Assembly: GCA_965215265.1 (NCBI GenBank)
Contig: OZ244048.1
Coordinates: 4,512,001-4,576,000 of the forward strand
Source of the DNA: Candidatus Poribacteria bacterium
Lineage (GTDB): Bacteria; Poribacteria; WGA-4E; WGA-3G
Direction of reading: 5' to 3'
DNA length: 64,000 nt
Of the stretch, positions 12,824 through 41,348 are shown piece after piece. Under the pieces are notes generated by a model. The model was given only the letters and a program-made list of their open reading frames with translations, had not been told where the DNA came from and ran no database searches. The translations under genes and the position numbers were made by a program. The first letter of the stretch is position 1, and each line of letters begins with the position of its first letter.

Positions 12824-13112
12824 AAAAAAGCCCTACTCATTCCAAACTTGGAGACGAGAAGGACTCAACTAACCTTTCCGTGGTACCACTCCAATTCTCT
12901 TTACCGAGGCAAAATTTCTCAGTTAAGAGCACTCTAACGGATGCAATAACGGGCATCACACCGGCCAACCCTACTGCTTTCGCGAGACGAAAATTCAGAT
13001 TAGCAGCTCCAGGGCGACCTTCAGTCATGGTAACTTGAGGAGACCTCTCAGCCTATGAGTCTCCCGCTCTGGCAAGCCCGGCCGACCTACTCCTCCCCTT
13101 CAACGCTTTTAT
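12824..13112 (-). promoter_or_regulatory. T-box riboswitch leader of ilvBNC, probable Val (GUC) specifier
   Basis: Minus strand reads AAAAGCGTTGAAGGGGAGGAGTAG...CAGAG...GCTGAGAG...GAAG-GTC-GCCCTGGAGC, then T-box GAGTGGTACCACG...CGTCTCC, then a terminator hairpin with a T6 tail. Confidence 0.85.
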
Positions 13113-23600: not shown

Positions 23601-24547
23601 GAGATAAACCCAGATTCTTAAATCCAGCAATCCTAGCCAGAATCGGAAATCTTGAATTCATTGCAAAATTGGTAGTAGAAGGCTTTATCTCAGGCCTTCA
23701 TAAAAGCCCCTATCACGGATTTAGCGTTGAATTCTCACAATACCGGCAATACATGCCCGGCGACGATACCAAACATATTGATTGGAAAGCTTACGGCCGG
23801 ACGGATAGATACTACATTAAACAGTTTGAAGAAGAAACCAATCTCAACTGCTACCTACTCTTAGATACGAGCCGCTCCATGATGTACCCAATACCCGAAG
23901 ACAAGACTACCGAAAACGATACATCAACACAAGCGAACGATGCTATACGAAAAATAACAAAGTTACAATATGCCAACTTTCTGATAGCCTCCTTGGCGTA
24001 CTTCATGGCAAAACAACGAGATGCCATCGGGTTCGCTTATTTCGATGACATACTTCACGAGTATCTGCCCGCACGAAGCACTGCAACACACTTGCACGCC
24101 ATCTTATTAAAACTGGAGACACTCGAAACCACAAAAAGCACCCGCCTAGGTACACCGCTCCATCAGGTTGCCGAACGACTCACAAAACGCGGATTAGTCA
24201 TCTTTATCTCCGACCTCTACGATGAAAACCGAGACGAACTCCTCGCAGGACTAGAACACCTTCGCTATGATGGGCATGAAGTTATCGTTTTCCATATCCT
24301 TGCACAGGAAGAACTGAACTTTGATTATAAACGGCCCATCAGATTTGTTGACTCAGAAACCGATGCGGAAATAATCACAACCCCGCAAGCCATTCAAGCG
24401 AATTATCTGCAACATTTCAATGCATTTATTGAAACCTACGGAGTTGCCATGCGCCAAGCCGATATAGATTATAATCTGATAAACACCTCAACGCCAATCG
24501 ATTTCGCGCTCTCATCCTACTTAGCCAAACGGCAAGGTTTTTTATAA
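23597..24547 (+). CDS. DUF58 domain protein
   Basis: GLHKSPYHGFSVEFSQYRQY.PGDD, IDWK and ISD motifs. Confidence 0.92.
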   Translation: MRDKPRFLNPAILARIGNLEFIAKLVVEGFISGLHKSPYHGFSVEFSQYRQYMPGDDTKHIDWKAYGRTDRYYIKQFEEETNLNCYLLLDTSRSMMYPIPEDKTTENDTSTQANDAIRKITKLQYANFLIASLAYFMAKQRDAIGFAYFDDILHEYLPARSTATHLHAILLKLETLETTKSTRLGTPLHQVAERLTKRGLVIFISDLYDENRDELLAGLEHLRYDGHEVIVFHILAQEELNFDYKRPIRFVDSETDAEIITTPQAIQANYLQHFNAFIETYGVAMRQADIDYNLINTSTPIDFALSSYLAKRQGFL

Positions 24548-24548
24548 T

Positions 24549-24776
24549 CTTTCGTCTACTGCAGCACGTCACCGATGGATTTTATGAACACCCACGCACA
24601 AATCTCGTGGCAGATTAGGTATTCTTTGTTTGTCCATGAGACAAGACAACCTTATACCTGCCATCTATAGATCGGAGTTTTCCGATGTTATGAATCAAAA
24701 CAGAGAGCGGCTCAGACGAGTTTTGTAAATGTTTTATCAAAACATCGATGGTAACGTGCTAAAATATACAAAAAAA
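24549..24776. repeat. Family 1 element with a family 2 insert
   Basis: aaatctcg|tcggag is split by tggcag...ctgccatctataga. Confidence 0.8.
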
Positions 24777-24781
24777 GGAAA

Positions 24782-26917
24782 ATGATGCCAGCTTTTTTAT
24801 TTCCACTCTTCGCAATCGCCGGTCTCATCGGGGCATCGATACCTGTCATCATACACTTGCTGAATCGTGAACGGGCACAACAGCTTATCTTCAGCACGCT
24901 GCGTTTCATCCAGATGTCGCATCAGACTAACGTGCAGCGGCACCAACTCAAACGTATGCTCTTGCTGCTGCTGCGTATCCTGATATTGGTTCTACTAGGG
25001 CTCGCTTTCGCACGCCCGTTCTTCGCCGCAGTGCCTGATAACGCACAGCAAACTGGCGGGAAACGAAATGTCGTTATCATTTTGGATACCTCCTATAGCA
25101 TGCAGTACCAGAACAACTTCGCTACAGCCAAAAAGGAAGCACTAGAAATTCTGGACAATCTTGATGCTACAGATGCCGCTGGACTCATCCTTGCCTCAAA
25201 TAGAGCCAGAATCGTCACACCGCTCGGCTCAGAATTTACACACATCCGAACCGCTATAAACAGTGCAACAGTGACAAATGAGACAACCGATTATCTAGAT
25301 GCGATTCAAACTGCCGATGAGATACTCCAACCTATCCTAATTGGCCAGAAATCCATCTATCTCGTGGCAGATATGCAAAAAAATGGGTGGAATAACTTCA
25401 TAGAAACCGATAAACTCAGCCCTGATGTTAACATAGTGTTGGTCAATGTTCGTACCGAACAACCGCATAACGTGACTATCACGGCTATCAACGTACCGCC
25501 TATTATCTTAAACGAACAAAAGCATACCCAACTTGTAGCGCGACTTTTTAATTTCGGAAACCAACCCGTTGAAGAGATGCCGGTACACCTCATAATTGAT
25601 GGAAAATTGATTAGCACGACAAAATTAGATATTGAACCCAACGATATCAAAGATGCAGTCTTCAAGATTGATTCATTATTCAATAGCGAAAACGCGGCGA
25701 TACATAGGGGATGGGTTGAAATTCCTAGCGACGCGTTGGTAATTGACAATAGACGTTATTTCATGTTGAAGAGTCTCACCTCTATTAAAGTTCTCTGTAT
25801 CAACGGAGAATACCAAACGCCGGTCGACCTAAGTGAAACATTCTTTCTAAAGAGGGCAATTGGGGCAGGAAGTGAAGCCGTCCCAATAGAGTTGACTGAA
25901 CTGCGAAGGCTGCCGGATGCAGCCACACTCTCGCAGTACGACGTTCTTCTTCTCGCCAACGTTTCTCAGCTCACTTCAACGGAAGCAAACGCATTGAAGG
26001 CTTACGTGAGCAGCGGCGGCGGGTTGATGTGTACAGTAGGCGATAAGGTTCAAGGCGATACTTACCAGCAGCAACTGAGTTCACTCATGCCGTGCACCTT
26101 TGTCCAATCCGTCGGAGATGCGTTTGAACGAGAAGAGTTCCGGCTCATCGCTACAGTCAACTATGAACACCCGATTTTCGCGCCGTTCAAAGAACCGAAC
26201 CACGGTGATTTCGGCAAAGCGCGGGTTTATAAGTACTTAGAAGCTGTACCTACCGGCGGTGACGCTGTCGTCATCGCTACCTATGACGATGGCAATCCTG
26301 CACTCTTTGAAAGAACCTACGGGACGGGACGTGTTCTCTGCTTTACCTCCACACTTGACAGGGAATGGACAGACTTACCAATTCGTGCTGTCTATCTCCC
26401 CTTCCTGCATGAATCTATAAAATATCTTGCTCTTAAACAGGTAGACGAAGCACCCGATTACCTTATCGGTGACAGTGTTGAACTCAGCGGTTTTGAAGGT
26501 TCAACTGCAAAGGAACTGGCTGTTTTCAATCCACACAACGAAGAGACACGCCTAAGCTTGATAACGGATACCAATGAAGGAGAGCTGTCTACTCCCGGGC
26601 GGAGCGTCACATACCAAAAAACCGAACTGCCCGGCATCTATTCCGTCCACGCCTCGGGGGCAACCTCACGCTACTTTGTTGTCAACCTGGATGCTACTGA
26701 ATCCAATCTCGACGCGCGTGATGTTGAAGAATTAGAGAGTATGTTAATGGGCGCGGCCGAGGCTAACAGCACTCAGGAAATAACCGGGCTCAACGCGAAA
26801 CAACTCATTGCAAAGTACCATGAGGATGTTGAAAAGAATCAGAACGTATGGGTGTATTTCATGCTTGCTGTCTTTGTCCTCGCTATAACCGAGATGTTTT
26901 TTTCAAACCGGATTTAG
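24782..26917 (+). CDS. BatA + VWA domain membrane protein
   Basis: PVIIHLL...LAFARP BatA N-terminus, DTSYSM MIDAS, C-terminal TM helix. Confidence 0.88.
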   Translation: MMPAFLFPLFAIAGLIGASIPVIIHLLNRERAQQLIFSTLRFIQMSHQTNVQRHQLKRMLLLLLRILILVLLGLAFARPFFAAVPDNAQQTGGKRNVVIILDTSYSMQYQNNFATAKKEALEILDNLDATDAAGLILASNRARIVTPLGSEFTHIRTAINSATVTNETTDYLDAIQTADEILQPILIGQKSIYLVADMQKNGWNNFIETDKLSPDVNIVLVNVRTEQPHNVTITAINVPPIILNEQKHTQLVARLFNFGNQPVEEMPVHLIIDGKLISTTKLDIEPNDIKDAVFKIDSLFNSENAAIHRGWVEIPSDALVIDNRRYFMLKSLTSIKVLCINGEYQTPVDLSETFFLKRAIGAGSEAVPIELTELRRLPDAATLSQYDVLLLANVSQLTSTEANALKAYVSSGGGLMCTVGDKVQGDTYQQQLSSLMPCTFVQSVGDAFEREEFRLIATVNYEHPIFAPFKEPNHGDFGKARVYKYLEAVPTGGDAVVIATYDDGNPALFERTYGTGRVLCFTSTLDREWTDLPIRAVYLPFLHESIKYLALKQVDEAPDYLIGDSVELSGFEGSTAKELAVFNPHNEETRLSLITDTNEGELSTPGRSVTYQKTELPGIYSVHASGATSRYFVVNLDATESNLDARDVEELESMLMGAAEANSTQEITGLNAKQLIAKYHEDVEKNQNVWVYFMLAVFVLAITEMFFSNRI

Positions 26918-26920
26918 TAG

Positions 26921-27011
26921 ATTTCGTCTACTGCAGCACGTTTTGTAAATGTTTTATCAAAACATCGATGGTAATGTGCTAAAATATACAAAAAAACGGA
27001 GATATACGAAA
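26921..27011. repeat. Truncated family 1 element
   Basis: Shares about 55 nt with 24721-24776. Confidence 0.75.
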
Positions 27012-27077
27012 TTGGTTCCCATATTAGATAGAACGAGCGCGAAAGCGCCACCAACATTAGTGCAAGGGCGACCTTAC

Positions 27078-27983
27078 TTGAGTCATACACAACAAGTCCC
27101 TAAAATTGCATCTGATAAGCAAGTACAGTTCTTTGTTAAGAACGGGTATCTCGTTGTTCCAGGTCTGCTCTCCGATGAAGAAATTGCGGAATTAAGGCAA
27201 GATACAACTACACTCGCCAGGGGTGGGCATCCCTGCGACACCCTCAAACCGGTGCCAGATGAAATAAGTGACGAAGAAGCAATTAGCCGCATTCTCTGTA
27301 TACATCAACCACACTTCGTCAGTCCTATCATTGAGAAATACATCAAACACCCCAAAATCTGTGGTATTTTAAGCCAGATAACCGCTGCGCACCTCCCACA
27401 CTGGGATGGCAGTGTCAAGTGTATGCAGTCAATGCTTTTCGTCAAACCACCCGAATTTCAAGGGCAAGCATGGCATCAGGATGAAATCTATATACCGACG
27501 CGCGACCGTTCGCTAATCGGCGCGTGGATTGCCATGGATAACGCGACCGTTGAAAACGGCTGCTTGTGGGTCCTCCCCGGTTCCCACCGGCCCGGGTACC
27601 TCTACCCACAAAAACCGCACGAAAATCCAGACGAATTCGATTTTGCAGAAGAGAGCTTCGGATTCGATGAAAAGGATGAAGTACCTGTAGAGGTGACAAC
27701 CGGAACACTTGTTTTTTTCAATGGATACTTGCTCCATCGCTCTCGTAAGAATCGTGGGCACACCTATCGACGGGTTCTGGTAAACCATTACTGTAACGCC
27801 TGGTCGTTATTACCCTGGTCGATACGCGAGGATGAACGGCCCGCCAGCGCAGACAGGCGATGCATCATTCCAGTTTCTGGTGTCGACCCCTATGCTTGGA
27901 AGGGATACGATGCAGCACCCAAAAACGTCTCATTGCGAACCTGCAAAACCGTTCAGCAACTGGAGGCATCAAATGACAGTTGA
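27078..27983 (+). CDS. PhyH family dioxygenase (start uncertain; the ORF extends to 26949 through a repeat)
   Basis: WHQDE, AWIAMD, NGCL, HRS and RR motifs. Confidence 0.88.
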   Translation: MSHTQQVPKIASDKQVQFFVKNGYLVVPGLLSDEEIAELRQDTTTLARGGHPCDTLKPVPDEISDEEAISRILCIHQPHFVSPIIEKYIKHPKICGILSQITAAHLPHWDGSVKCMQSMLFVKPPEFQGQAWHQDEIYIPTRDRSLIGAWIAMDNATVENGCLWVLPGSHRPGYLYPQKPHENPDEFDFAEESFGFDEKDEVPVEVTTGTLVFFNGYLLHRSRKNRGHTYRRVLVNHYCNAWSLLPWSIREDERPASADRRCIIPVSGVDPYAWKGYDAAPKNVSLRTCKTVQQLEASNDS

Positions 27984-28176
27984 ACACCGAGAGGAATTGA
28001 AACAAACGTTGGCACTGATGTTTGAACGGATTCAATCCGGCGCGGATATCACAGAACAGCTCCTCCGCATCAACACACTGCATTGCCTCATCTCACCAAC
28101 AGCTCCTCGCATGCTCGACCACTATCTTGAGCGCAAGAGCTATACAAAAGCGTTAGAACTCTTGATGCAGATGTAA
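27973..28176 (+). CDS. Small hypothetical protein (HYLERKSYTKAL)
   Basis: GGAGG SD upstream; overlaps the PhyH stop codon. Confidence 0.6.
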   Translation: MTVEHREELKQTLALMFERIQSGADITEQLLRINTLHCLISPTAPRMLDHYLERKSYTKALELLMQM

Positions 28177-28345
28177 TTTTGTCTACTGCAGCACGTTAAC
28201 GATGATGTAATGTTTACCCTTGTACAAAATTCGTCGGAGCCGTTATATATTTTGACTCAAAAGACTATACCTAAGAAGCCTCCGACGAGATTTACATCAG
28301 ATGTAACACAACATAACCGTTGATGGTACGGAGATATACGAAAAA
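28177..28345. repeat. Complete family 1 element
   Basis: Arm-core-inverted arm, about 170 bp. Confidence 0.85.
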
Positions 28346-28352
28346 CGAAAGA

Positions 28353-29111
28353 ATGAAAAGAATTGATGGACGCCAGCCAGATGAGTTGCGCCCGGTTAAA
28401 ATCAAGCGCAACTATATTAAGCACGCCGAAGGATCTGTTTTTATCGCAATTGGAGATACCCAAATAATATGCACCGCTTCTGTTGAAGACCAGCAGCCCA
28501 GTTTCATGCGTCAACAACGTATCCGCAAAAGAGGTTGGGTAACCGCAGAATACTCCATGCTGCCACGCTCCACCGCAGAACGGATGCAACGCGAGATATC
28601 TCGTGGACACCTCGCAGGCAGAACCCAGGAAATTCAACGGCTCATCGGACGTGCATTGCGCACCGCCGTCGATCTTTACGCTTTAGAAGAAAAAACAATT
28701 TGGATCGACTGTGATGTCATTCAGGCGGACGGTGGTACGCGCACTGCTGCTATTACAGGGGCCTTCATCGCACTTTGGGATGCCGGACAATACCTGCTTC
28801 AACGTCAGAAAATCAAAAACTTCCCCATCCGGGAGAATATAGCCGCAACGAGCGTCGGAATTATCAAAGGGCAATCCCTATTAGATCTCTGTTACGCCGA
28901 AGACTCTACTGCCGATGTCGATATGAATGTTGTTATGACAGGGACAGGCAAATTTATAGAGATACAAGGGACTGCTGAAGTGCAGCCTTTTTCGCGTGAA
29001 GAATCCGACAAACTTTTGGAACTCGCTACCGGGGGCATCCAGCAACTTATCCGATTGCAAAACAAAATGATGCTCGAAAACTTGGAGACGCTTGTATGGC
29101 CAGAGAAGTAA
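28353..29111 (+). CDS. rph: Ribonuclease PH
   Basis: [35 protein letters not shown] and EIQGTAE motifs. Confidence 0.97.
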
Positions 29112-29481
29112 TTCGTCTACTGCAGCACATCGCAAGTTGCTGTAATGTTATACCCCTTACAAATCTCGTTCTTTGTATACTGCAGCACAGCAACACCGGA
29201 CGGGGTGATAACGCTTGCACAAATCTCGTTCTTTCGTCTACAGGAGCACAACACAACAGATGTAATGAACACCCACGCACAAATCTCGTCTGAGCCATTT
29301 TAGGTTTAGATTCAAACAAAAACATCAAGAGGCTCCGACGAGATTTACACAGTCATTGACAATACATCAGGCGTTATCGGGCTGAAATATACAAAAAATT
29401 GTGTTCATAAAATCCATCGGTGACGTGCTGCAGTAGACGAAAACGTGCTAAAGGATACAAAACGTGCTAAAAGATACGAAA
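29112..29481. repeat. Family 1 cluster with three tandem ~60-nt arms
   Basis: Arms start at about 29112, 29172 and 29232, each ending in aaatctcgt. Confidence 0.85.
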
Positions 29482-30096
29482 AGACTTGTATTGGCGACAC
29501 GGAACCACGGGAAAGTTAGAGAATTGATAGCTCTTGTCAAAAACGCTCTATATGAGGAAACAGCCTCGGCGCACTGTTCAATTCAAATTCTAACGCTGCA
29601 GGACTTCCTTGATGCCCCGGATGTTATAGAGGATGGCGAGACCTACGTGGAAAACGCAATCAAGAAAGCGAAAGTCATCGCTGACTATACCGGACACCTT
29701 ACTCTTGCCGATGATGCAGGGTTAGAGGTAGACGCACTCAACGGTGCCCCAGGTGTCAGATCCAAACGCTGGGCATCCGAAGAGACACGACTGACAAAAC
29801 TACTAAAAGCGTTAGAATCGAAGACTCAGAGGAGTGCCCGATTTGTCACGGCTATTGCACTCGTTGCCCCGAATTCAGAACCAGAAGTGGTAATTGGCGT
29901 TTGTGAAGGCAGTATTGCACATGCACCGGCCGGCAAGGGCGGTTTTGGATACGATCCGGTATTTGTCCCTGAAGGACATGACAAGACTTTTGCTGAATTG
30001 GGAGATGACATCAAAAATCAGATCAGCCATAGGGCTAAAGCACTGCAGCTTGCACTCCCATTATTGTTAAAAAAAGTGGTTTTTAGTATACAGTAG
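29464..30096 (+). CDS. rdgB: dITP/XTP pyrophosphatase (RdgB/HAM1)
   Basis: ATRNHGK, DDAGL, GFGYDP and KNQISHR motifs. Confidence 0.95.
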   Translation: MLKDTKRLVLATRNHGKVRELIALVKNALYEETASAHCSIQILTLQDFLDAPDVIEDGETYVENAIKKAKVIADYTGHLTLADDAGLEVDALNGAPGVRSKRWASEETRLTKLLKALESKTQRSARFVTAIALVAPNSEPEVVIGVCEGSIAHAPAGKGGFGYDPVFVPEGHDKTFAELGDDIKNQISHRAKALQLALPLLLKKVVFSIQ

Positions 30097-30446
30097 CACA
30101 ACAAAGGCGTGTGTTGTGATAAATCCTTTACAAATCTCGTTCTTTCGTCTACAGGAGCCCAATGACGCTCTATGTTTTGTAAAAATCTGTGAAAATCTCG
30201 TCTGAGCCGTCTGGTGTTTTGACTTTAAAGACATTACCTAGAGCGTCTCCGACGAGTTTTATCTATAGATTGGCAGGTAAAAGGTAGCACTAGCGTGTCC
30301 TGAAGGACACGCATAGACTACCTATCCTCCCAACACAGTCATTGACAATGCATAATGCGTTATCGGGCTGAAATATACAAAAAAAACGAGATTTACATCA
30401 GAACCATCAAAACATAGACCGTAATGGTACGGAGATATACAAAAAA
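30080..30446. repeat. Family 1 cluster with a family 2 insert (30261-30332)
   Basis: Tandem arms plus atctatagat-tggcagg...cctccca. Confidence 0.85.
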
Positions 30447-31004
30447 ATGGCAGCTCTTAATGATTTAAAGAATGGATTAGTTATCCGACTCAACGATACA
30501 ATCTACACGATTGTAGATTGTCAACATGTCAAACCGGGTAAAGGCGGTGCGTTCGCCCGGACGAAAATTAAGCGCGTAAGCGATGGTGCTGTGCTAGACC
30601 GGACCTTCCGAACAAACGAGACTGTTGAAACCGTCCGACTTCTTGACCACGAAATGCAATATCTATACAGTGACGGCGACGCATTCTACTTTATGGACAA
30701 CGAAACTTTTGAACAGTATATCCTCAGCGCCGACCTCATCGGCGACGGATTGAAATTCTTAAAAGAAGGCGAGAGCGTTACCGTCAAAATGGAAGGAACC
30801 ATGCCAATAGCACTTGAATTGCCGACGTTCGTCGTACTTAAAATCGTCGAGACTGATCCCGGATTACGTGGGGATACAGTAAGCGGCGGCTCCAAACGCG
30901 CTACACTTGAAACCGGCGCCGTCGTTAACGTACCGCTCTTCGTTCAAAACGAAACTGACATCAAAGTTGACACACGCACTGGAAAATATGTCGAAAGGGT
31001 TTAG
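30447..31004 (+). CDS. efp: Elongation factor P
   Basis: KPGKGGAF, GDT, VPLF and DTRTG.Y motifs. Confidence 0.98.
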   Translation: MAALNDLKNGLVIRLNDTIYTIVDCQHVKPGKGGAFARTKIKRVSDGAVLDRTFRTNETVETVRLLDHEMQYLYSDGDAFYFMDNETFEQYILSADLIGDGLKFLKEGESVTVKMEGTMPIALELPTFVVLKIVETDPGLRGDTVSGGSKRATLETGAVVNVPLFVQNETDIKVDTRTGKYVERV

Positions 31005-31071
31005 AAATGAACAGAAAGAGAAAAAGTCTGGCAGAGGCGGCACCCCCTACGCAAGCACGCGATAAACCTTA

Positions 31072-31204
31072 TTTCGTCTACTGCAGCACGTTTTCGCCTA
31101 CAGTAGCACATCAACGCCCGATGTTCTGTTAGAGAAACATAAGGCGTTGACGTGCTGAAATATACAAAAAAACATCAGCCGTTGGAGGGCTGAAATATAC
31201 AAAA
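31072..31204. repeat. Family 1 fragments between efp and accB
   Basis: ttcgtctactgcagcac and two gctgaaatatacaaaa ends. Confidence 0.75.
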
Positions 31205-31660
31205 ATGGACGAGCTCCTCAAACTTGTTGTACAACTCGCGAACATTGCTGAAGAAAAAGAACTCACGGAAGTTCGCATCCGAGATGGAGAAATCGAAGTA
31301 CAAGTATCCAGGCAGAAATCGCAAGGTCCCGGAACCGGCACTGGGCATTTCCTGCCAGCGTCTCCCACAGAAGTGACACCAACTCCTATGGACTCCAGCG
31401 ATGCGAATCAATTTCCTGACTCTGAATTGATTAACGCGCCTATGCCGTCACGATTCTATCGCTCCCCAGCACCTGAAGAACCAGCGTTTGTTCAAGTAGG
31501 CGATACGGTAAATGCCGGAGATACTATAGCAATCCTCGAAGTCATGAAAACTTACAACCCGGTTGAAACGTCTTTCAACTGTGAGATACTCGACATACTT
31601 GCTGAGGATGGTGACGCTGTTGAATACGGGCAACCGTTGTTCCGCGTCCGTAGATGCTAG
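31205..31660 (+). CDS. accB: Biotin carboxyl carrier protein
   Basis: EVMK biotinylation motif; VEYGQPLF. Confidence 0.93.
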   Translation: MDELLKLVVQLANIAEEKELTEVRIRDGEIEVQVSRQKSQGPGTGTGHFLPASPTEVTPTPMDSSDANQFPDSELINAPMPSRFYRSPAPEEPAFVQVGDTVNAGDTIAILEVMKTYNPVETSFNCEILDILAEDGDAVEYGQPLFRVRRC

Positions 31661-31681
31661 GTAATTCTTCGTGAGGAAAAT

Positions 31682-33049
31682 ATGTTCCAAAAAATACTCA
31701 TAGCCAATAGAGGCGAAATAGCTGTCCGCATTATCCGTGCATGTAAGGACATGGGAATTAAAACGGTAGCAATCTTTTCTACTGCTGATGCAGATGCACT
31801 GCACGTTGAGAATGCTGACGAAGCCTACTGTATCGGACCGCCGCCGTCAACAGAGAGCTATCTTAAATATGCCAATATTATTGCTGTGGCAGATTTCGCG
31901 AATGTGGATGCCATCCATCCGGGGGCAGGATTCCTCTCCGAGGACGCGCAATTCGCCGAAATTTGTGAAGCACATGAGATCCGGTTTATCGGTCCCTCTG
32001 TTACTGACCTCGCAACAATGGGAGACAAAGTCCATGCCCGTGAAAAAGTCGCCAAAGCAGGACTGAAATTGGTCGCGGGCAGCCGGGACAACAAACGGAG
32101 AAACGCAAATAAATCAAACGCGACTCTTACCGTCGAAAAGGCAATTCAGCTTGCTGAGAAAATAGGTTACCCAGTCGGTATCAAAGCGACTGCCGGCGGT
32201 GGCGGGCGCGGCATCCGTATTGCACACAATCGTCCGAGCCTTTACAATCTATTTCACACCGCAAAGTCAGAAGCTGACGCAGCCTTTGGTAATGCCGAAG
32301 TTTACCTTGAAAAATGGATCGAAGAGGCACGCCACATTGAAGTACAAATCCTCGCCGATACCCATGGAAACGCAGTTCATTTCGGTGAACGTGAATGCTC
32401 TATCCAACGGAAGCAGCAAAAACTCCTCGAAGAAGCCCCTGCTGCATCTATTTCCCCAAAACTTCGCGCCGAAATTTGCAAAGCCGCCGTAAAAGCCGTC
32501 AAATCAATCGGATATACGAACGCCGGAACCATCGAATTTGTTGTGGATACCAACGATAATTTCTATTTCTTAGAAATGAATACGCGCATCCAGGTAGAGC
32601 ACACCGTAACGGAAAATACCACTAACACCGATCTGATTAAAGAGCAAATTCGGCTCGCAAGCGGCGAAGAGCTCGGATATAGCCAATCTGATATTCAACT
32701 GCAAGGGCATGCAATTGAATGCCGAATTAATGCCGAAGATCCGGACAATGAGTTCATGCCCTCACCAGGGCTGATTAAAAACTACCATCCGCCCGGCGGG
32801 ATTGGCATTCGCGTTGACAGTTATCTCTATACCGGCTACACTGTTCCACCGCACTATGACTCGCTCATTGCTAAACTCATTGCTACCGGACGGGATCGGA
32901 ACGAAGCAATCGCACGACTCAAGCGGGCACTCTCTGAATTTAGAATTGACGGTATCAAAACCACAATCCCGTTGCATCAAAAAATACTGAACGACGAACG
33001 TTTTCTCAACCGAAACATCTTCACAAATTTTTTAGACAAAGGTTTTTAG
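31682..33049 (+). CDS. accC: Biotin carboxylase
   Basis: ANRGEIA, GGGGRG, ECSIQR, EMNTRIQVEH and YDSLIAK motifs. Confidence 0.97.
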   Translation: MFQKILIANRGEIAVRIIRACKDMGIKTVAIFSTADADALHVENADEAYCIGPPPSTESYLKYANIIAVADFANVDAIHPGAGFLSEDAQFAEICEAHEIRFIGPSVTDLATMGDKVHAREKVAKAGLKLVAGSRDNKRRNANKSNATLTVEKAIQLAEKIGYPVGIKATAGGGGRGIRIAHNRPSLYNLFHTAKSEADAAFGNAEVYLEKWIEEARHIEVQILADTHGNAVHFGERECSIQRKQQKLLEEAPAASISPKLRAEICKAAVKAVKSIGYTNAGTIEFVVDTNDNFYFLEMNTRIQVEHTVTENTTNTDLIKEQIRLASGEELGYSQSDIQLQGHAIECRINAEDPDNEFMPSPGLIKNYHPPGGIGIRVDSYLYTGYTVPPHYDSLIAKLIATGRDRNEAIARLKRALSEFRIDGIKTTIPLHQKILNDERFLNRNIFTNFLDKGF

Positions 33050-33286
33050 TATACGGTAGCACAATAAAGGTTTTTAGTATATTTTAGCCCCATCAACGCT
33101 TAGGTATTGACAGCCCGTGTGTAAATCTCGTCGGAGCCATTTTATGCTATGCCTAAACAGAGAGAGTCTCCGGCGAGGTTTACACAGGCATTGACACAAC
33201 ATCAGCCGTTGACGTGCTGAAATATACGAAAACATACATCGGATTGATAAAAATAGGAACATTGACGGTGCGGAGATATACAAAAA
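33043..33286. repeat. Family 1 element from the accC stop codon to the CRTAC1 start codon
   Basis: ttttagtata...cggagatatacaaaaaATG. Confidence 0.85.
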
Positions 33287-35014
33287 ATGAAGGTAAAGAA
33301 CATCCACGTAACTGTCGGACTCATAGTTACACTAATTTCAATCAAGGCAGTGGCGGTTGCGTCCACTTTTGTTGATGTAACGCGCGAAGCTGGCATCGAT
33401 TTTCATCATAGCGGTGGTTCTCCTCGCTCCAGCCTACTTCCAGAGGATATGGGGTCCGGCGCAGCCTTCGTCGATATTGATAACGACACGCATATTGATC
33501 TTTACATCGTTAACAGCCCTGGCCCTTTCAGGGAGCACGGACAGCAAACTCAGGCTAACGTCCTCTACCGAAACAATGGCGACGGCACGTTTACAGATAT
33601 AACAACCAGTGCCTTCCAAAATAGTAACGATGCACTTAATAAGCCTGCACCATACGGCATGGGATGTGTCTACGCAGATTATGATGGCGACGGAGATGTT
33701 GATCTCTACCTTACCAATTACGGGAACAACACCCTCTATCGAAATAATGGAAATAGAACGTTTACAAATGTAACAGACACCGCCGGAGTTGGCGGAGAAT
33801 CGTGGAGTACAGGTGCTGCCTTTGCTGATACCGATGCCGACGGCGACTTAGATCTTTACGTTTGCAACTACGTTACTTATGATTTAGAAAAATTACAGGA
33901 CATGCAGGCAGAATCCCTTCAATCTGGGAAACCTGTACCCAGTGCCTTGAATCCACACGTCTTTGAACCACAAGATAACGTCTTCTATCGCAACAATGGC
34001 GACGGCACCTTCACTGATGTAACGACCGAGGTTGGAGTTGCCGCATCAGGGGGCAGAAGCATGCAGGCAATCTTTAGCGACTTTGATCTGGATAACGATA
34101 TGGACCTGTACGTTGCAAACGATACTACTGTCAACCACACTTATCGCAACAATGGCGACGGCACCTTCACTGATGTCAGCGATGATTCCTGGGCAGCAGA
34201 TTTCCGCGGCTCCATGGGACTCGCTACCGGAGACTACGACAACGACGGCGACATAGACCTCTTTATGAGCCATTGGGTTGATGAAGAAAATGTCCTCTAT
34301 AGAAACCTCCTCATCGAAACGTCAACACCTAACGCAAAAAAAATTCGGTTTGCCGATGAATCATATTCCTCAATGTTAGCAGAAGTCAGTATCAAAGAGA
34401 TTGGATGGGGAACCTCACTCTTTGACTACGACAATGATGGCGACCTGGATATCTTTGTCACAAATGGAAGCACCTTCCAAGAACTGGACCGCCCGGAAAA
34501 CCTGATTCCGCAAAAAGACGCGTTGTTTCGCAACAATGGCGAATCGACGTTTACCGATGTCAGCGAGCTCGTAGGCATCACAACACTGCCGGCGCGAGTA
34601 GGGCGAGGCGCAACCTTTGGCGATTACGACAACGACGGAGACATCGACATCTTTATCGTGAACAACCATGCACAGCCCACGCTGCTGCGCAATGATACAA
34701 TCCGTGTAAGGACAGCTAGCACTAACAACTGGCTACACGTCAACTTGCATGGAACTGATGCAAACCGAAATGCTATCGGCGCGAAAATTCAGATTAAAAC
34801 AGAAAATGGCAGTCAAATCCGAGAAATTTACGCCGGAGAAAGCTACATGTCTTGTAATAGTTATACTGCCGAATTTGGCGTAGGCACAGCAACAGCCGTC
34901 GAATCCCTGCAGGTTACGTGGCCCAATGGAATAACACAAACACTCCATGACGTTCCGGTGAATCAACGGATAGATATTTCCTATATCTCCGTACCATCAA
35001 CGCCTATGCCTTGA
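33287..35014 (+). CDS. CRTAC1-family FG-GAP + ASPIC/UnbV secreted protein
   Basis: Repeated DYDNDGDxD and YRNNGDGTFTDV; AIGAK...WPNG ASPIC domain. Confidence 0.92.
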   Translation: MKVKNIHVTVGLIVTLISIKAVAVASTFVDVTREAGIDFHHSGGSPRSSLLPEDMGSGAAFVDIDNDTHIDLYIVNSPGPFREHGQQTQANVLYRNNGDGTFTDITTSAFQNSNDALNKPAPYGMGCVYADYDGDGDVDLYLTNYGNNTLYRNNGNRTFTNVTDTAGVGGESWSTGAAFADTDADGDLDLYVCNYVTYDLEKLQDMQAESLQSGKPVPSALNPHVFEPQDNVFYRNNGDGTFTDVTTEVGVAASGGRSMQAIFSDFDLDNDMDLYVANDTTVNHTYRNNGDGTFTDVSDDSWAADFRGSMGLATGDYDNDGDIDLFMSHWVDEENVLYRNLLIETSTPNAKKIRFADESYSSMLAEVSIKEIGWGTSLFDYDNDGDLDIFVTNGSTFQELDRPENLIPQKDALFRNNGESTFTDVSELVGITTLPARVGRGATFGDYDNDGDIDIFIVNNHAQPTLLRNDTIRVRTASTNNWLHVNLHGTDANRNAIGAKIQIKTENGSQIREIYAGESYMSCNSYTAEFGVGTATAVESLQVTWPNGITQTLHDVPVNQRIDISYISVPSTPMP

Positions 35015-35488
35015 TAGCTCATGTGTAAATCTCGTTTTTTTGTATATTTCAGCCCCATCAAGGGTTATGTATTGTTAAATCCGATGTAAATCTCGGCGGA
35101 GGTTAACTAGGTATAGTCTTTAAAATCTAAACATAAACGGCCCAGGCGAGATTTGTAAAGTTATTAACACAGCAGCAGCCTTGTATCGGGCTCCTGTAGA
35201 CGAAAGAACGAGATTTGACAAGGGGTTATCAAAACACAGATTAGTATTGTGCCCAATGGGTGGCAGGTGGTAGGGTTCGGTTGAGCCATCTATAGATAAA
35301 AGGTTATCTTTTCACTTCTAGAAGGAGTGAAAAAGAATACCTATCCTGCCACTGAAATATAGGAAAAAAAATAAATCTCATCGGAGCCCTTTTATGTTTT
35401 GTTTGAATCATAACCTCGAAAACCTCAAACGAGATTTGTGCGAGGTTGTATATTACATCATCGGTGCCGTGTTGCAGTATACAAAAGT
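34977..35488. repeat. Large family 1 / family 2 cluster
   Basis: Several arms and cores plus cccaatgggtggcagg...cctgccac. Confidence 0.8.
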
Positions 35489-36848
35489 GCATATTATTAC
35501 TTTACTCATCCTCTTTCATACAATCGGATGTGGAGAAGATCCTGCGATTAAGCGCGGTAAACAACTCGCCGTCAGTGGTGATACTGCAGCAGCAATACAT
35601 GAATTTGAGGAAGCCCTTAAACGAGATCCGGCTAATGCAGAAACCTATTATCAACTTGGCGTAGTTCATGAACAGACCGCGCAGGCGGGACAAGCTGTGA
35701 TAGCGTTTCAGAAAGCACTACGGCTCGCACCGAAAAGAGACGACATACGCTTTGCCCTCGGACGCGTCTATTGGTTTGGAGACAAGCCAGATTTGGCACT
35801 TGAACAATTCCAAAAGCTCCTGATTACGAAGCACGATATCCTTCTAAAGATAGCAGGACTCACCGGGGATGCTTACCACGTCAAACGACTCCGAACTGAA
35901 GGGAGTAACGACTACGAGCAAACCTTTACAGAGAAGGGAAATATCATGACATTTACTGCAAAGTATGCAGATGATTATAGTCCCGCTATCTCACCTGACG
36001 GAAAATGGATAACCTTCACGTCCTACCGATTGCAAAACGGTGAGATTTACCTGATGAACATCTCGGTACCGGATGGAGAACCCCGGCAACTCACGCATAC
36101 GGATGAGCTTGACGAATATATGCCGACCTTCTCGGCTGATGGAAAGACACTCGCCTTCGTTACGGAACGCACAAAGGGCATGATGATGCTCCCGCCGATT
36201 CAGGCAAGCGGTTCTGTCCCGAGCACTGCAAAAATCTATCTGATGGACATTGACGGTCGAAATCAACGGCCCTTAGCGGAGATGCCAGGCATGCAAAGCG
36301 CACCAGCATTCTCACCTAATGGACAGAAAATCGCCTTTGAATCAAATTTTTCCGAGACTCCTGAAACGGACAATGACATGGAAATTTTTGTCATCAATAT
36401 AGATGGCACCGGCCAAATACAGCTAACCGACAATGATGTGGACGATGGAAACCCTACTTGGACACCGGATGGAAAACAGATAGCTTTCGTATCAAATATC
36501 AGAGAAACCTACCAGATCTGTGTCATGAATGCAAAAGGCGGAGACATCAAACAGCGGACAGCATCTACTGACAGTCACTACCAACCGCTCTTTACACCAG
36601 ATGGAAAACGAATTATTTACGTTTCAGACGCTCATAATCACTACACCCTCTGGATGATGAACGCAGACGGTACAAACAAAAACCAACTCACGAATCACAT
36701 CGGGGCCCATTTTGAACCCAGTTTGTCCCACGATGGGAAAAAACTCGTTTTCAGCGCAGATCGTTCCGATCATATGCGAATTTACCTTCTCGATTTCACA
36801 CAACCTATCAAAAAAGAGGAACTGCAAGCACGTTTTCGTCTACAGTAG
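35469..36848 (+). CDS. TPR + TolB/PD40 beta-propeller lipoprotein
   Basis: Lipobox TIGC, TPRs, repeated P.FSPDGK.I. Likely GTG start lies in the repeat end. Confidence 0.85.
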   Translation: MLQYTKVHIITLLILFHTIGCGEDPAIKRGKQLAVSGDTAAAIHEFEEALKRDPANAETYYQLGVVHEQTAQAGQAVIAFQKALRLAPKRDDIRFALGRVYWFGDKPDLALEQFQKLLITKHDILLKIAGLTGDAYHVKRLRTEGSNDYEQTFTEKGNIMTFTAKYADDYSPAISPDGKWITFTSYRLQNGEIYLMNISVPDGEPRQLTHTDELDEYMPTFSADGKTLAFVTERTKGMMMLPPIQASGSVPSTAKIYLMDIDGRNQRPLAEMPGMQSAPAFSPNGQKIAFESNFSETPETDNDMEIFVINIDGTGQIQLTDNDVDDGNPTWTPDGKQIAFVSNIRETYQICVMNAKGGDIKQRTASTDSHYQPLFTPDGKRIIYVSDAHNHYTLWMMNADGTNKNQLTNHIGAHFEPSLSHDGKKLVFSADRSDHMRIYLLDFTQPIKKEELQARFRLQ

Positions 36849-37442
36849 CACGTCAAAGATGTCTGTAATATGCACCTTAGCACAAATCTCGCCTTTTCGT
36901 ATATCTCCGTACCGTCAACGCTTATGTAATAATAACTCGTGTGTAAATCTCGTCGGAGATGACTTAGGTTATGTCTTTAAAAATCTAAACATCAGAACCC
37001 TCCCAGTGGGTGGCAGGTAAAAGGTAATCTTCTCTCATGGACAGACAAAGAATACCTATCCTGCCACTGGCGAGATTTGTAAAGGATTTAACATAGCAGC
37101 AGCCTTTATTGGGCTCCTGTATACAAAAAAACGAGATTTGTAAAGGATTTAGTAAGACAGCAACTTGTGCCGTGCTGCAGTATACAAAAGCCTAAAAGAT
37201 ACATACGAAAAATCTAAACAGAGAAAACTTCAGACGAGATTTGTCAAGGGTATCCATTCCATCAGGTGTTGATGTGCTAAAAGATACGAAAAATCTAAAC
37301 AGAGAGAGGCTCCGACGATCTATAGATGACGAGAAAAAGGTAATCTTTTCTGTCCTCGAGGAGAGAAAAAGAATACCTATCTCGTCAGATTTGTGCGAGA
37401 TTGTATATTATATCATAGGTGCCGTGCTAAAATATACGAAAA
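36833..37442. repeat. Large family 1 / family 2 cluster (inserts at 37003-37067 and about 37318-37387)
   Basis: Canonical junctions split by double hairpins. Confidence 0.85.
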
Positions 37443-39757
37443 CCTGCTTCCTCGTTCTTCTAATGGTTATCGGTTGCCAAACTGATACTCCTAAACAAGA
37501 ACCTCCTTCTCAATTCTCCATTCAGTACAAACGCGGTATAGAGGCGTTAGACATGGACAAGTTGACAGAAGCAGAAAAGGCGTTTCAGACGTGTTTACAA
37601 ATCAATGCCAACGCGCTCAATGCTCGCATGCAGTTAGCACGCATCTATATTAGACAGCAAAAATTTAACCGTGCAGAAGCGACATTAGGGGCATTAGAAA
37701 CACTACACGGAGAACACCAAAATCTCCAAGAATTGGCACAAGCCTACCTCATGCTCTCACAAATTTTTAGTTACCAGCAGCGATTTGCGGATGCCACTGC
37801 CGCGTTGACAACCGCGTTGGAATTCAATCCAATGGATACAAGCGCTCGCATGAGATTGGGATATTTCTTAGGTGCACCCCAGCAGATGCTCGTCCCTGAT
37901 CTGGCGGCATCAAAACGGCAGTTTGAAAAAGTCTTGGAACTTGAACCGAATCATCCAGAAGCGATGCTCCAACTCGGATTGGCGGAATTCAGATTAGGAG
38001 AACCGGATAAAGCCGCGAAACGTTTTACGCATCTGATCGAAAACTACGGCCGGCACGCGGGAGCTTACTACTACTTAGGTGTCTATCATCTGCGGCACGG
38101 TAACCTTGAAGCAGCCATAGATAACTTCAAAGAATCCCTCCATCTCAGACCTCGGGACCCTGAAACCCTCTGGAATCTTTGGACAGCTGCTTCCAAATTC
38201 GGCGGTTATCCAGACAACTTACCAGAGGCATTTAAAATTCGACCAAAATCAGCCGAACCGCGAATCGGTAGCACAAATCTTGATACACTGTCCCTCCCTA
38301 AATTTACCAACCTCGCTTCCGCTTTAGGCATGGACAAAGTTGATGGAGGTCGAGGTAGCGCCTGGGGTGACTACGATAAAGACGGCGATTTGGACATCGT
38401 CGCGGTCGGCACCTATCAGCCTCATGCACTTTATAGGAATAACGGTGACGGAACATTTACCGACGTTGCGGAAGACGCAGGCATAGCGGATCCGCGCGGC
38501 GGCTGGGGCTCCCTATTTGCTGATTACAATAACGACGGATACATAGATCTCTATATCACACGCGGCGGCTGGTCGGGTGCAGCGGAGAATACCCTCTACC
38601 ACAACAACGGTGACGGGACATTCACAGATGTCACCGAAATCGCAGGTGTCGCAGATCCGCAGAGCAGCTTCTGTGCCGCATGGGCAGATTACAATAATGA
38701 CGGACATATAGATCTCTATATTGCAGACGGAGTCATCGGCGACGGGGCCCCCAACGTCCTCTACCACAATAACGGCGACGGCACTTTTATAAACACCGCA
38801 GAGGCAGCCGGGGTAGCGAACCGAGGAAACTCCCTCGGCACCGCATGGGGCGATTACAATAAAGACGGACACATCGATCTGCATGTTGTCAACTTTGGAC
38901 AACAGAATGTTCTCTATCGTAATAACGGCGACGGCACCTTCACCGACGTAACACCTACCACAGGCATGGAGTTATCTATCACCGACCCTTTCGTCACCTT
39001 TTTTTTAGATGTGGATAATGATGCAGATTTGGATATTTTCATTTCAAACTCAGGTTCTTTTCAAGCATTTATCGCATGTCAACTCACAGGCACGGCTACA
39101 CACGATAGCGACCGGCAAGTGCTTTACCGCAACAACGGAGACGGCACTTTTACTGACGTAACGCGCGAATCGGGACTCTATAAAGCTTTTGGGGCAATGG
39201 GTGCCAACTTCGAAGATATTAATGGTGATGGCTATCTCGATATCTACCTCGCCACCGGCGCGCCACAAATGGGACGTTTGGAGAGAGACGCGCTCTTCCT
39301 AAACAACGGTGACGGCACCTTTACCGATGAGACCATCACTTCAGGCTTAGGCAATATCGGAAAGGGGCACGGGGTTACCTTTGGCGATGCAGATGCGGAT
39401 GGAGACGTGGATATTTACGTTTCTGTTGGCGGTGCCTTTATTGGAGATCAGTGGCACAATCTTTTTTACCATAACCCGGGTACACAAAACAATTGGATCA
39501 CGCTCAAAACAGTTGGAGTCAAAAGCAACCGGGATGGCATCGGGGCAAAAGTGACACTCACCCTTGGGAATACCAAAATTTATAGAGAAGTCAGTGGCGG
39601 GTGTGGATTTGGCTCAACCAACAGCATTCCACTTGAAATCGGGTTAGGAAAAGCGAAACAGGTAGACAGACTTGAAATCGTTTGGCCCTCCGGGCAGATC
39701 GATATATACACCCATCTCGCTCCCAATCAGCCCTACGTCCTCACTGAAGGTTTTTAG
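37424..39757 (+). CDS. TPR + FG-GAP + ASPIC/UnbV lipoprotein
   Basis: Lipobox VIGC, TPRs, DYNNDG repeats, GIGAKV...WPSG. Likely GTG start lies in the repeat end. Confidence 0.88.
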   Translation: MLKYTKTCFLVLLMVIGCQTDTPKQEPPSQFSIQYKRGIEALDMDKLTEAEKAFQTCLQINANALNARMQLARIYIRQQKFNRAEATLGALETLHGEHQNLQELAQAYLMLSQIFSYQQRFADATAALTTALEFNPMDTSARMRLGYFLGAPQQMLVPDLAASKRQFEKVLELEPNHPEAMLQLGLAEFRLGEPDKAAKRFTHLIENYGRHAGAYYYLGVYHLRHGNLEAAIDNFKESLHLRPRDPETLWNLWTAASKFGGYPDNLPEAFKIRPKSAEPRIGSTNLDTLSLPKFTNLASALGMDKVDGGRGSAWGDYDKDGDLDIVAVGTYQPHALYRNNGDGTFTDVAEDAGIADPRGGWGSLFADYNNDGYIDLYITRGGWSGAAENTLYHNNGDGTFTDVTEIAGVADPQSSFCAAWADYNNDGHIDLYIADGVIGDGAPNVLYHNNGDGTFINTAEAAGVANRGNSLGTAWGDYNKDGHIDLHVVNFGQQNVLYRNNGDGTFTDVTPTTGMELSITDPFVTFFLDVDNDADLDIFISNSGSFQAFIACQLTGTATHDSDRQVLYRNNGDGTFTDVTRESGLYKAFGAMGANFEDINGDGYLDIYLATGAPQMGRLERDALFLNNGDGTFTDETITSGLGNIGKGHGVTFGDADADGDVDIYVSVGGAFIGDQWHNLFYHNPGTQNNWITLKTVGVKSNRDGIGAKVTLTLGNTKIYREVSGGCGFGSTNSIPLEIGLGKAKQVDRLEIVWPSGQIDIYTHLAPNQPYVLTEGF

Positions 39758-40122
39758 TATACTGCAGCACAACACAAGCAGTTGTAATGTTTAATCCTTT
39801 ACAAATCTCGTTTTTTCGTCTACAGGAGCCCATTAAAGGCTGCTGCTATATTAAAACCTTTGCAAATCTCGTCGGAGTCTTTCGATGTTATGAATCTAAA
39901 CAGAAAGAGGCTCCGACGAGATTTATGCGAGGATATTCATTCTATCAGGTGTTGATGTGCTAAAAGATACGAAAAATCTAAACAGAGAGAGGCTCCGACG
40001 ATCTATAGATGACGAGAAAAAGGTAATCTTTTCTCATGGACAGAAAAAGAATACCTATCTCGTCAGATTTGTGCGAGGTTGTATACTACATCCATCAGTG
40101 ACGTGCTAAAAGATACGAAAAA
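39751..40122. repeat. Family 1 / family 2 cluster; 39944-40122 is a direct near-copy of 37261-37442
   Basis: About 90 nt identical, followed by a similar arm. Confidence 0.85.
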
Positions 40123-40127
40123 CCACC

Positions 40128-40715
40128 TTACGTATCGCTCTCGTTGTCCGCTTCCAACAACCGACGCATCAGTTCCGAACGCACCTCCGATGGCAACGCC
40201 CGAAGCTCCGACTGCGATAACTCTTGAAGCGCCTTGACACGCTCATCGGCGCTCAGCCTTTTCACCAGTTCATCGGCACTGAGTCCTTTCACACGCTCAT
40301 CAACACTGAGTCTTTTCACTAACTCCGAAGGCGGAATTCTCTCCAAGATATCCGAACCAAATTTCTCTATTAGCTCCCTCAACTCCGCTTGCGACAAACT
40401 TTGAAGCACCTTGATATGCTCATCAGCACTGAGTCCTTTCACACGCTCATCAACACTGAGCCTTTTCACTAACTCCGAAGGCGGAATTCTCTCCAAGATA
40501 TCCGAACCAAATTTCTCTATTAGCTCCCTCAACTCCGCTTGCGACAAACTTTGAAGCACCTTGATATGCTCATCAGCACTGAGTCCTTTCGCACGCTCAT
40601 CAACACTGAGCCTTTTCACTAACTCCGAAGGCGGAATTCTCTCCAAGATATCCGAACCAAATTTCTCTATTAGCTCCCTCAACTCCGCATCGTAAAATCC
40701 TTGATGCCCCATCAT
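40128..40715 (-). CDS. Putative internally initiated small isoform (RpnS-like), 195 aa
   Basis: GGAGGT (40728-40723) lies 7 nt before an in-frame ATGATG at the start of the repeat region. Confidence 0.55.
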   Translation of the reverse strand: MMGHQGFYDAELRELIEKFGSDILERIPPSELVKRLSVDERAKGLSADEHIKVLQSLSQAELRELIEKFGSDILERIPPSELVKRLSVDERVKGLSADEHIKVLQSLSQAELRELIEKFGSDILERIPPSELVKRLSVDERVKGLSADELVKRLSADERVKALQELSQSELRALPSEVRSELMRRLLEADNESDT

Positions 40716-41348
40716 ACGTAACACCTCCAGTGCACGCAGTGGACGAATCCACAACGCATAGTTAAAATACACACGCTGTTCTTCTGAAACAACCTGCTCA
40801 ACAAACGAATCAAAGCCTGAAAACGACACCGTAAAAGGCAGAAGTAAATAGTTCTCACGCGCAATCTCTAGCTCATTGCACACTAATAGATGCACAGCAA
40901 ACCTCTCTGTCCACTGGTAGTGTCCAGGCTTCACCAACTCCCATTCCCCACTGGTACCCGAGAGAAACCCCCGAGGCGAACTCGCCGTCACTATCGTCAA
41001 AGTGAGCTCATCCTTTGGAACCCGCTTATCCGACAGATAAATACTGGCCCGCGCATGGATACGGGAATAGTCCCACTCATCTAACCGATCCGCTTGACTC
41101 TTGAACTCAATCAGGTTATGCGAACGGAAATACTGGCATATCGGCTCTACCGCCAGCAAGTTCGCACGCTCTGCTGCATCTTTCAACAGCACGACCACGT
41201 CTATCGTGAGCGGCAGATGGCTGACTTCCACCTCTGATTGGACAGTCAGCCCGATTTTCTCGCCGAGATGCTCGTGCATTGTCTGTTTGAAGCGTGCGTC
41301 ATAGGTAGCACGGGCATCGCGCTGTTTTTCCGCATCGGCTATCCGCAT
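40128..41348 (-). CDS. Rpn-like PD-(D/E)xK nuclease with a tandemly repeated C-terminal region
   Basis: E...IDVV...NLIEFKS nuclease motif; 50-aa repeats; internal SD-ATG. Confidence 0.7.
   Translation of the reverse strand: MRIADAEKQRDARATYDARFKQTMHEHLGEKIGLTVQSEVEVSHLPLTIDVVVLLKDAAERANLLAVEPICQYFRSHNLIEFKSQADRLDEWDYSRIHARASIYLSDKRVPKDELTLTIVTASSPRGFLSGTSGEWELVKPGHYQWTERFAVHLLVCNELEIARENYLLLPFTVSFSGFDSFVEQVVSEEQRVYFNYALWIRPLRALEVLRMMGHQGFYDAELRELIEKFGSDILERIPPSELVKRLSVDERAKGLSADEHIKVLQSLSQAELRELIEKFGSDILERIPPSELVKRLSVDERVKGLSADEHIKVLQSLSQAELRELIEKFGSDILERIPPSELVKRLSVDERVKGLSADELVKRLSADERVKALQELSQSELRALPSEVRSELMRRLLEADNESDT
40240..40688 (-). repeat. Coding tandem repeat with a 150-bp period and 24-bp subunits
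   Basis: aactccgaaggcggaattctctcc at 40321, 40471 and 40621; LS(A/V)DExxK units. Confidence 0.95.

Follow-up and report, generated by a model that had tools for sequence, protein, structure and literature searches.

The window, by which we mean the whole 64,000-nt stretch of DNA that was analyzed, is part of a closed 4.83-Mb chromosome of Candidatus Poribacteria, which are uncultivated sponge symbionts. EF-P from this genome shares 89% identity with its nearest homologue and 71% to 85% with most others, from Candidatus Poribacteria genomes. Reading the sequence of the gap between rph and rdgB revealed three 57-nt arms (29112–29288), arranged head-to-tail with a period of 60 nt. Each begins with a T-run plus GTMTA (TTYGTMTA) and ends with AAATCTCG. 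These three units had been noted at 29112–29291 in a sequence-only reading, and all of them are present at the 60-nt spacing given there. The array was not called by Tandem Repeats Finder because its copies are merely 65% to 71% alike. On the other side of a short core lie further arms in the opposite orientation, and the whole is referred to here as a composite (Table 1). The core and the two tails that face each other across it (29281–29346) form a strong hairpin (RNA fold −24.6 kcal/mol, z −6.3). Fold z values for arms 1, 2 and 3 are −1.1, −0.3 and +0.9, respectively, corresponding to no significant fold.

Table 1. Coordinates of the rph–rdgB composite, its adjoining genes and other composites in the window.
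Feature	Position	Strand	Remarks
RNase PH gene (rph)	28320–29111		Ends with TAA; abutted by arm 1
Arm 1, R class	29112–29168	+	Tail ..TTACAAATCTCG; directly 3' of the RNase PH TAA stop
Arm 2, R class	29172–29228	+	Starts 60 nt after arm 1; 65% identity to arm 1
Arm 3, R class	29232–29288	+	Starts 60 nt after arm 2
Core, 50 nt	29289–29338	.	Between arm 3 and the inverted L arm
Inverted L-class arm	29339–29398	-	Tail ..GTGTAAATCTCG; opposite the three R arms across the core
Inverted R-type arm without tail	29399–29443	-	Head and middle only (HMM positions 2–44)
Two head-only stubs	29437–29482	-	Period 19 nt; overlap the start of rdgB
rdgB gene	29464–30096 (ORF)
Neighboring composite	28175–28345	.	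One direct arm, 52-nt core, one inverted L arm
Composite between rdgB and efp	30080–30446	.	Two direct arms, core hairpin, two inverted arms
Core-less, tail-less derivative	31068–31204	.	Half arms and head stubs, within the ancestral accB 5' coding region
Composite with the most recent arm duplication in the window (8237–8356)	8147–8467	.
Composite between two TPR/TolB-like genes	36832–37294	.	Two direct and three inverted arms
Composite with core hairpin of z −7.5	39751–39976	.	Two direct arms, core hairpin, one inverted arm

Eight of the nine other arms named in the sequence-only reading (at about 850, 7252, 10272, 24551, 30083, 30143, 36835 and 39755) are found in our arm listing, and the ninth (~2550) corresponds to a composite at genome position 4514549 whose tail has one mismatch. 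The additional stacked arrays were also recovered, one (8237–8356) by Tandem Repeats Finder with a period of 60, 2.0 copies and 96% matches, and two (30080–30200 and 39751–39871) in the arm listing. Several of these elements touch genes directly. The ATG of efp at 30447 is abutted by the last head of the preceding composite, the present ATG of accB at 31205 abuts an arm head of the core-less derivative, and the TAG stop of the ORF at 37241–39757 is supplied by the first arm of the composite that follows.

Other features of the window were recorded along with the arms. A T-box leader (Rfam RF00230, 97.3 bits) lies at 12847–13112 on the minus strand, upstream of an acetolactate synthase large-subunit gene (10815–12506, minus strand), and is flanked by an arm at 12751–12810. 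A second repeat family of approximately 44–61 nt carries a short hairpin (TCTCTCC..GGAGAGA) and is present at 9615–9703, 61480–61604, 1081–1142 and 4939–5000; of its 81 BLAST matches to the genome, 33 lie no more than 300 nt from a 60-nt arm, and there are copies that, like the arms, finish with AAATCTCG beside a core. The minus-strand ORF at 40128–41348 holds an in-frame tandem repeat of 150 nt (40270–40688, 2.8 copies, 98% matches) with 27-nt sub-repeats.

To count arms across the chromosome, an HMM was built from 324 ungapped seed arms. This model gave 950 genome matches at E ≤ 1 and 804 at E < 1e-3, and at E ≤ 0.01 it placed 861 arms in 409 clusters that together occupy 67.9 kb, or 1.4% of the genome. 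Counts of simple patterns agree that the arms are far from chance occurrences: CAAATCTCG, with one mismatch or fewer, occurs 60 times in the window versus 19.0 ± 4.0 expected, a number reached in none of 100 shuffles, and the 57-nt anchor pattern matches 279 times in the genome versus 0 for the same pattern read backwards. Arm density is uneven along the chromosome. A bias of arms with respect to replication strand was suspected and then found to be absent, and an internal periodicity of ~20 nt within the arm was looked for and not found.

Clusters have a consistent layout in which direct arms are followed by inverted arms with their tails facing, and a minus-then-plus junction is seen in just 18 of 409. 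The most common forms are + (96), − (83), +− (69), ++− (23), +−− (23), ++ (20), −− (20) and ++−− (11). A composite thus laid out holds one or several direct arms, a core hairpin and one or several inverted arms, and the minimal element is ~165–175 nt long. Where arms are stacked, the period is mostly 61 nt (72 cases), with 62 nt (23) and 60 nt (16) also represented, and the gap between facing tails, which is the length of the core, falls into classes of 37, 45 and 52/53 nt. Partial arms are frequent at the outer edges of clusters and often correspond to one of two recurrent halves (model positions 1–38 or 22–60). Head-to-head junctions are heterogeneous, and the idea that they are palindromic was rejected.

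The constant heart of the element is the hairpin formed by the core and the facing tails (AAATCTCG and CGAGATTT), which had z values between −3.0 and −7.5 in the four composites tested. Terminal inverted repeats, as found in MITEs, are made by the direct and inverted arms of nearly all multi-arm clusters. Arms that face each other across a core share heads and tails; in their interiors they have 52% identity, with no pair at 70% or above. The arms fall into two classes, typed by a single column: L, with the tail ..GTGTAAATCTCG (n = 394), and R, with the tail ..ACAAATCTCG (n = 217). The innermost pairs across the core are L+R in 69 cases, L+L in 18 and R+R in 10, versus 44, 40 and 12 expected (chi-square p = 2e-6). 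L and R, which usually lie on opposite sides of a core, are the two ends of an asymmetric element. When elements are oriented from L to R, G-T outnumbers A-C by 58 to 18 at three stem positions, and from this excess it follows that the element has polarity.

That the arms have a fixed length had been proposed from a hand alignment, and this holds for most but not all arms. The distance from head to tail was measured with the motifs alone, which sidesteps the bias of the HMM against indels, and is modal in 408 of 519 pairs, off by one in 91 and more different in 20. The comparison of indels and substitutions suggested along with that claim was also run. Between nearest-neighbor arms, 1611 substitutions were counted against 39 gap openings (41:1), and in the cores of the same elements 416 against 28 (15:1; odds ratio 2.8 by the Fisher test, p = 1e-4), where arms were limited to head-tail distances of 43–55 nt and cores were allowed 15–80 nt. 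The length of the arms is strongly conserved, more tightly than that of neighboring DNA, and in this respect the proposed constraint on spacing was borne out. The most plausible reason for the fixed spacing would be paired protein-binding or recombination sites. One specific binding protein was considered and rejected, as just 2 of 468 arms match the IHF site consensus.

Differences between arms are organized by family. An identical twin exists for 102 of 509 arms, and 396 of 509 have a neighbor that is at least 90% identical. Since nearest neighbors are mostly close, large differences between arms must lie between sub-lineages that keep their length, and do not reflect the decay of single copies. 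The recurrent alternative head blocks described earlier are real: among 468 distinct full-length arms, tctccgtacc occurs in 168, tttcagcccc in 112, caggagccca in 85 and ctgcagcaca in 50. Some block partners are preferred: of the 168 arms with tctccgtacc, 125 also carry ataactcgtgtgt. Other combinations are found too, with the tttcagcccc head block being joined to seven tail types. Linkage between columns declines with distance, from a mean mutual information of 0.16 at 1 nt to 0.06 at 10–12 nt. The earlier proposal that blocks are shuffled by recombination therefore stands in part. Head blocks do join several middle and tail blocks and linkage does fall, but much of the pattern is the difference between the L and R classes, which as the two ends of one element account for part of the “alternative blocks.” Arms that are adjacent in a stack are at least 90% alike in 12 of 48 pairs, and their mean interior identity is 0.70 versus 0.56 for random pairs.

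Whole composites have been copied around the genome without target duplications. They recur at 90% to 99% identity, and the similarity often begins and ends at arm heads. Alignments between clusters at 90% identity or more over at least 140 nt number 118, with pairs counted in both directions, and all six of the near-identical pairs inspected have unrelated flanks and lack a target duplication. A relative of the same genus (locus L005) shows how the sites look when empty: its rph–rdgB gap is 2 nt versus 352 nt here, and its efp–accB gap is 2 nt versus 200 nt here, with the gaps of the present genome holding arms. The ancestral start of accB and ~20 of its codons remain in place after efp, and 137 nt of arm fragments separate them from the rest of the gene, which has a new ATG. 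Comparison with the uninterrupted gene of the relative revealed no target duplication at this insertion. A leftover ORF of 41 codons (31007–31132), which starts 2 nt 3' of the efp stop, consists of the first ~20 ancestral accB codons fused to arm sequence.

The arms have a narrow distribution. None is present in 80 efp loci of other genomes, and neither the arm pattern nor the arm model was found in any of 40 relatives, apart from one weak match. This match led to a genome of another genus with the same tail-core-tail hairpin, present at 9 sites versus 78 here. Of 151 Poribacteria genomes searched, just 2 contain the tail-core-tail pattern. Arms of the other genus have a different sequence, are longer, are stacked with a period of 117 nt and place a purine-rich head beside a start codon. 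What the two genera have in common is thus the hairpin, which is conserved, whereas the arms are replaceable. That the family occurs in another genus but was not found in the single same-genus genome searched points to horizontal movement or repeated loss. A metagenome scan with the arm pattern returned two stretches, neither of which was scored by the arm HMM, and these were counted as chance. Contigs from four DNA runs of four other studies join the arms at 29112–29243 and 39751–39963 to genes with few differences, and therefore the arrays are stable among the strains sampled. Over 24000–40200, these contigs gave no clear gain or loss of arms between strains, and most of them break at clusters. 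Note that mobility was not caught in action, as no target duplications mark the insertions and no presence/absence difference between strains was seen; this is a weakness of the case for movement. A full-text search, supplements apart, found no publications on such repeats in Poribacteria.

Composites are mostly located in tiny intergenic gaps and sometimes within the ends of genes. With gene boundaries taken as ORFs of 90 aa or more instead of the output of a gene caller, 32 of 483 outer heads are at distance 0 from an ORF start and 62 are within ±3 nt. Incoming stop codons are clustered at 12 nt or less before the head, or are located within the arm. L arms face starts and stops at 76:37 and R arms at 29:39 (odds ratio 2.8, p = 0.002). 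L arms carry an outward GGAG. Among all heads, an outward GGAG is found on 60 of 162 that face starts (37%) versus 16 of 111 that face stops (14%).

Such contacts raise the possibility that the elements mainly serve the host as expression modules, with the hairpin as a terminator or insulator and the heads as leaders that provide a ribosome-binding site, all kept by selection. The heads that abut starts and the preference of GGAG-bearing L arms for facing them agree with this explanation, as do efp and accB, which now start directly at a head, and the purine-rich heads placed likewise beside start codons by elements of the other genus. We nevertheless regard it as unlikely. The same-genus relative has the same operon with 2-nt gaps and without elements, the 40 relatives lack arms and whole composites have been copied to unrelated places. 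Consensus sites for sigma-70-type promoters (25 versus 17.3 ± 3.5) and for terminators (14 versus 12.7 ± 4.4) are not enriched, and more than half of the start-facing heads are without GGAG. Moreover, a selection filter acting on insertions into a compact genome would leave the same pattern. We read the start-codon contacts as such a survival filter together with some real donation of leaders.

A search of the genome for a mobilizing enzyme gave no Y1/RAYT, rve, TnpB-type or IS110 match. The Y1_Tnp family (PF01797) had 0 matches in this closed, 95%-complete genome, and 6 of 14 control genomes were matched. Matches to DDE transposases are weak or broken fragments alone, none of them flanked by arms; an IS630-type partner was rejected on the same grounds, its DDE_3 fragments being broken and not flanked by arms. 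Pairs of a direct and then an inverted arm at a distance of 200–8000 nt could enclose a partner, and 5 of 15 were read; to judge from their translations, these hold ordinary-looking genes and nothing like a transposase. Two 367-aa ORFs that resemble DNA polymerase III beta (sliding clamp) paralogs, judged by translation alone, lie near each other at genome positions ~2,763,700–2,766,200, with a direct arm on one side and an inverted arm on the other.

Two further candidates were set aside. The sole reverse transcriptase appears to be part of a diversity-generating retroelement and hence was rejected as the mobilizer. This probable retroelement (genome 1,418,596–1,422,237, locus L085) was recognized from its ORF translations. 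The reverse transcriptase (354 aa; RVT_1, E 1e-23) is accompanied by a target gene of the FGE-sulfatase type, whose C-terminus is variable, and by a small accessory ORF that is helical; there is also a template-like repeat of the target end, and a YhgA-like gene adjoins. The genome contains 24 Rpn/YhgA-like (PF04754) ORFs, many with an MgtE_N domain, and other multi-copy families are represented by ~20 FGE-sulfatase-domain and ~10 N6_N4 DNA methylase ORFs. The 24 Rpn/YhgA-like nuclease paralogs were rejected as partners of the arms, as their median distance to an arm is 6.8 kb versus 9.0 kb for all ORFs and just 4% are within 300 nt of an arm versus 15% of all ORFs. A partner insertion sequence may exist in another genome.

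The outcome of the enzyme search bears on whether the composites are elements of the REP/REPIN type, that is, hairpins of single-stranded DNA whose movement depends on a REP-associated tyrosine transposase (RAYT). The elements here agree with this in having a conserved hairpin and lacking a target duplication, and the excess of G-T over A-C hints that one strand is the folded strand. REPs bear a GTAG tag, and heads with GTCTAC read GTAGAC when reverse-complemented. However, the C that gives GTAG is present in just 86 of 324 seed arms, and the transposase family was detected in controls but not here. The unit of a REP is a short imperfect palindrome, paired in inverted orientation; the tail-core-tail segment here is a strong hairpin, and the 57–60-nt arms themselves do not fold, unlike REPs. 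The two arms of one element are also unlike each other. The probability of this explanation is low, about half that of expression modules.

The arms show little sign of acting as RNA. Their mean folding z is −0.3 (150 sampled of 468 arms), RNAalifold gave no consensus structure and no Rfam family matches them at the gathering score. Columns 27 and 47 display an isolated Watson-Crick covariation across the genome, with a mutual information of 0.78 and 89% canonical pairs versus 48% expected, and within L arms alone there are 128 C:G and 98 G:C combinations. A helix of three pairs around these columns is 57% paired in 36 window arms, the same as when it is slid by one column. Comparison of the variable middles with phages, plasmids and viral contigs, a check that had been proposed beforehand, gave no match. 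Against the masked genome itself there are 11 matches at 8 places; among the 6 places listed, the two best look like unmasked arm fragments, and the remainder are matches of 17–20 nt, so that self targets beyond likely arm fragments were not found.

In stacked arms, 20 conserved bases alternate with ~40 variable bases every 60–61 nt, and a processed guide-like RNA was among the suggestions of the sequence-only reading. On this explanation a stack would be a repeat-spacer array for guide-like RNAs (CRISPR-like or other), or each arm would be a structured small RNA. This explanation is close to refuted: the repeat-spacer appearance is superficial in that the “spacers” fall into alignable families with the close neighbors noted above, they match nothing in the phages, plasmids and viral contigs searched, the arms lack a fold and an Rfam family, the 27–47 pair has no helix around it and arrays occur in both orientations around a hairpin at 409 places. 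A CRISPR array and a structured small RNA family were both rejected on this evidence.

We conclude, with a probability of about 0.7, that the three arms between rph and rdgB are one end of a small, non-coding and non-autonomous repeat element of the general MITE/BIME/BOX kind. The family is probably a selfish, modular repeat that is restricted to its lineage and orphaned of its transposase. A complete element consists of one or more L arms, the core hairpin and one or more inverted R arms, with each arm being a module of fixed length (57–60 nt) made of a head, a middle and a tail block. The fixed length may be the distance from outer head to tail and hairpin that is needed by a mobilizing or binding protein. 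Extra arms could arise when arms are duplicated locally or when the shared anchors recombine unequally, and the same anchors would allow copies to exchange blocks, yielding mosaics. Selection would then retain insertions that leave neighboring genes working, and an A-rich and often GGAG-bearing head that points toward a downstream start codon may aid retention.

Each of the known kinds matches only in part. Like MITEs, the elements are small, non-coding and present in many copies (409 clusters, 861 arms) with terminal inverted repeats, and neither a target site duplication nor a full-length insertion sequence with the same ends was found. MITEs with long modular inverted ends include foldback-type elements and the Correia/NEMIS elements of Neisseria. 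The minimal Poribacteria element resembles these in its size (165–175 nt), its inverted ends, its intergenic location and the stop codons and leaders that it gives to its neighbors. It differs from them in lacking a target duplication and a cognate transposase, in having end interiors that are 52% alike and in that its center, not its termini, is conserved across genera.

BIMEs are mosaics in which REP units alternate in orientation. Together with other REP clusters and with the REPIN-RAYT systems of enterobacteria and pseudomonads (PMC3116915, PMC3337134), they form high-copy extragenic mosaics of few unit types, and like the elements here they are hairpin-forming, without target duplication and lineage-specific. 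Unlike them, the Poribacteria genome has no RAYT, its ~60-nt arms are unfolded and stacked directly on each side and the two ends of an element belong to different classes.

BOX elements of Streptococcus pneumoniae are described as boxA-(boxB)n-boxC with constant ends and an internal tandem module, and their end sequences are in common with an insertion sequence (Croucher et al. 2011, PMC3049150). As described there, they too are small non-coding composites that carry one module in variable tandem number, are intergenic, may affect gene expression and form arrays that gain or lose modules. Going by the same description, the tandem module of BOX is internal, whereas in Poribacteria it is the outer arms that stack, on both sides of a constant central hairpin; and BOX ends have an insertion-sequence partner, whereas for the Poribacteria arms none was found.

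A more novel reading can be put forward tentatively, as possible but doubtful. The elements might be an undescribed mobile family centered on the hairpin, in which tail-core-tail, present in two Poribacteria genera and missing from the 149 other genomes searched, is recognized, the arms are interchangeable pieces of fixed length with outward translation-start signals and a mobilizing enzyme reads the hairpin on one strand, as the excess of G-T over A-C hints, and needs a set distance from head to hairpin. Arms with such outward signals would be carried so that the element can live inside operons.

As a small, non-autonomous repeat, the family shows how repeat DNA can enter a tightly packed operon and leave it working. 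The arms supply stop codons, leaders and new start contexts, and one insertion has separated accB from its 5' end. In genome annotation, arms account for odd gene starts and ends and for breaks in short-read assemblies. The patchy distribution over two genera makes the mobilizing enzyme approachable by comparison of gene content.
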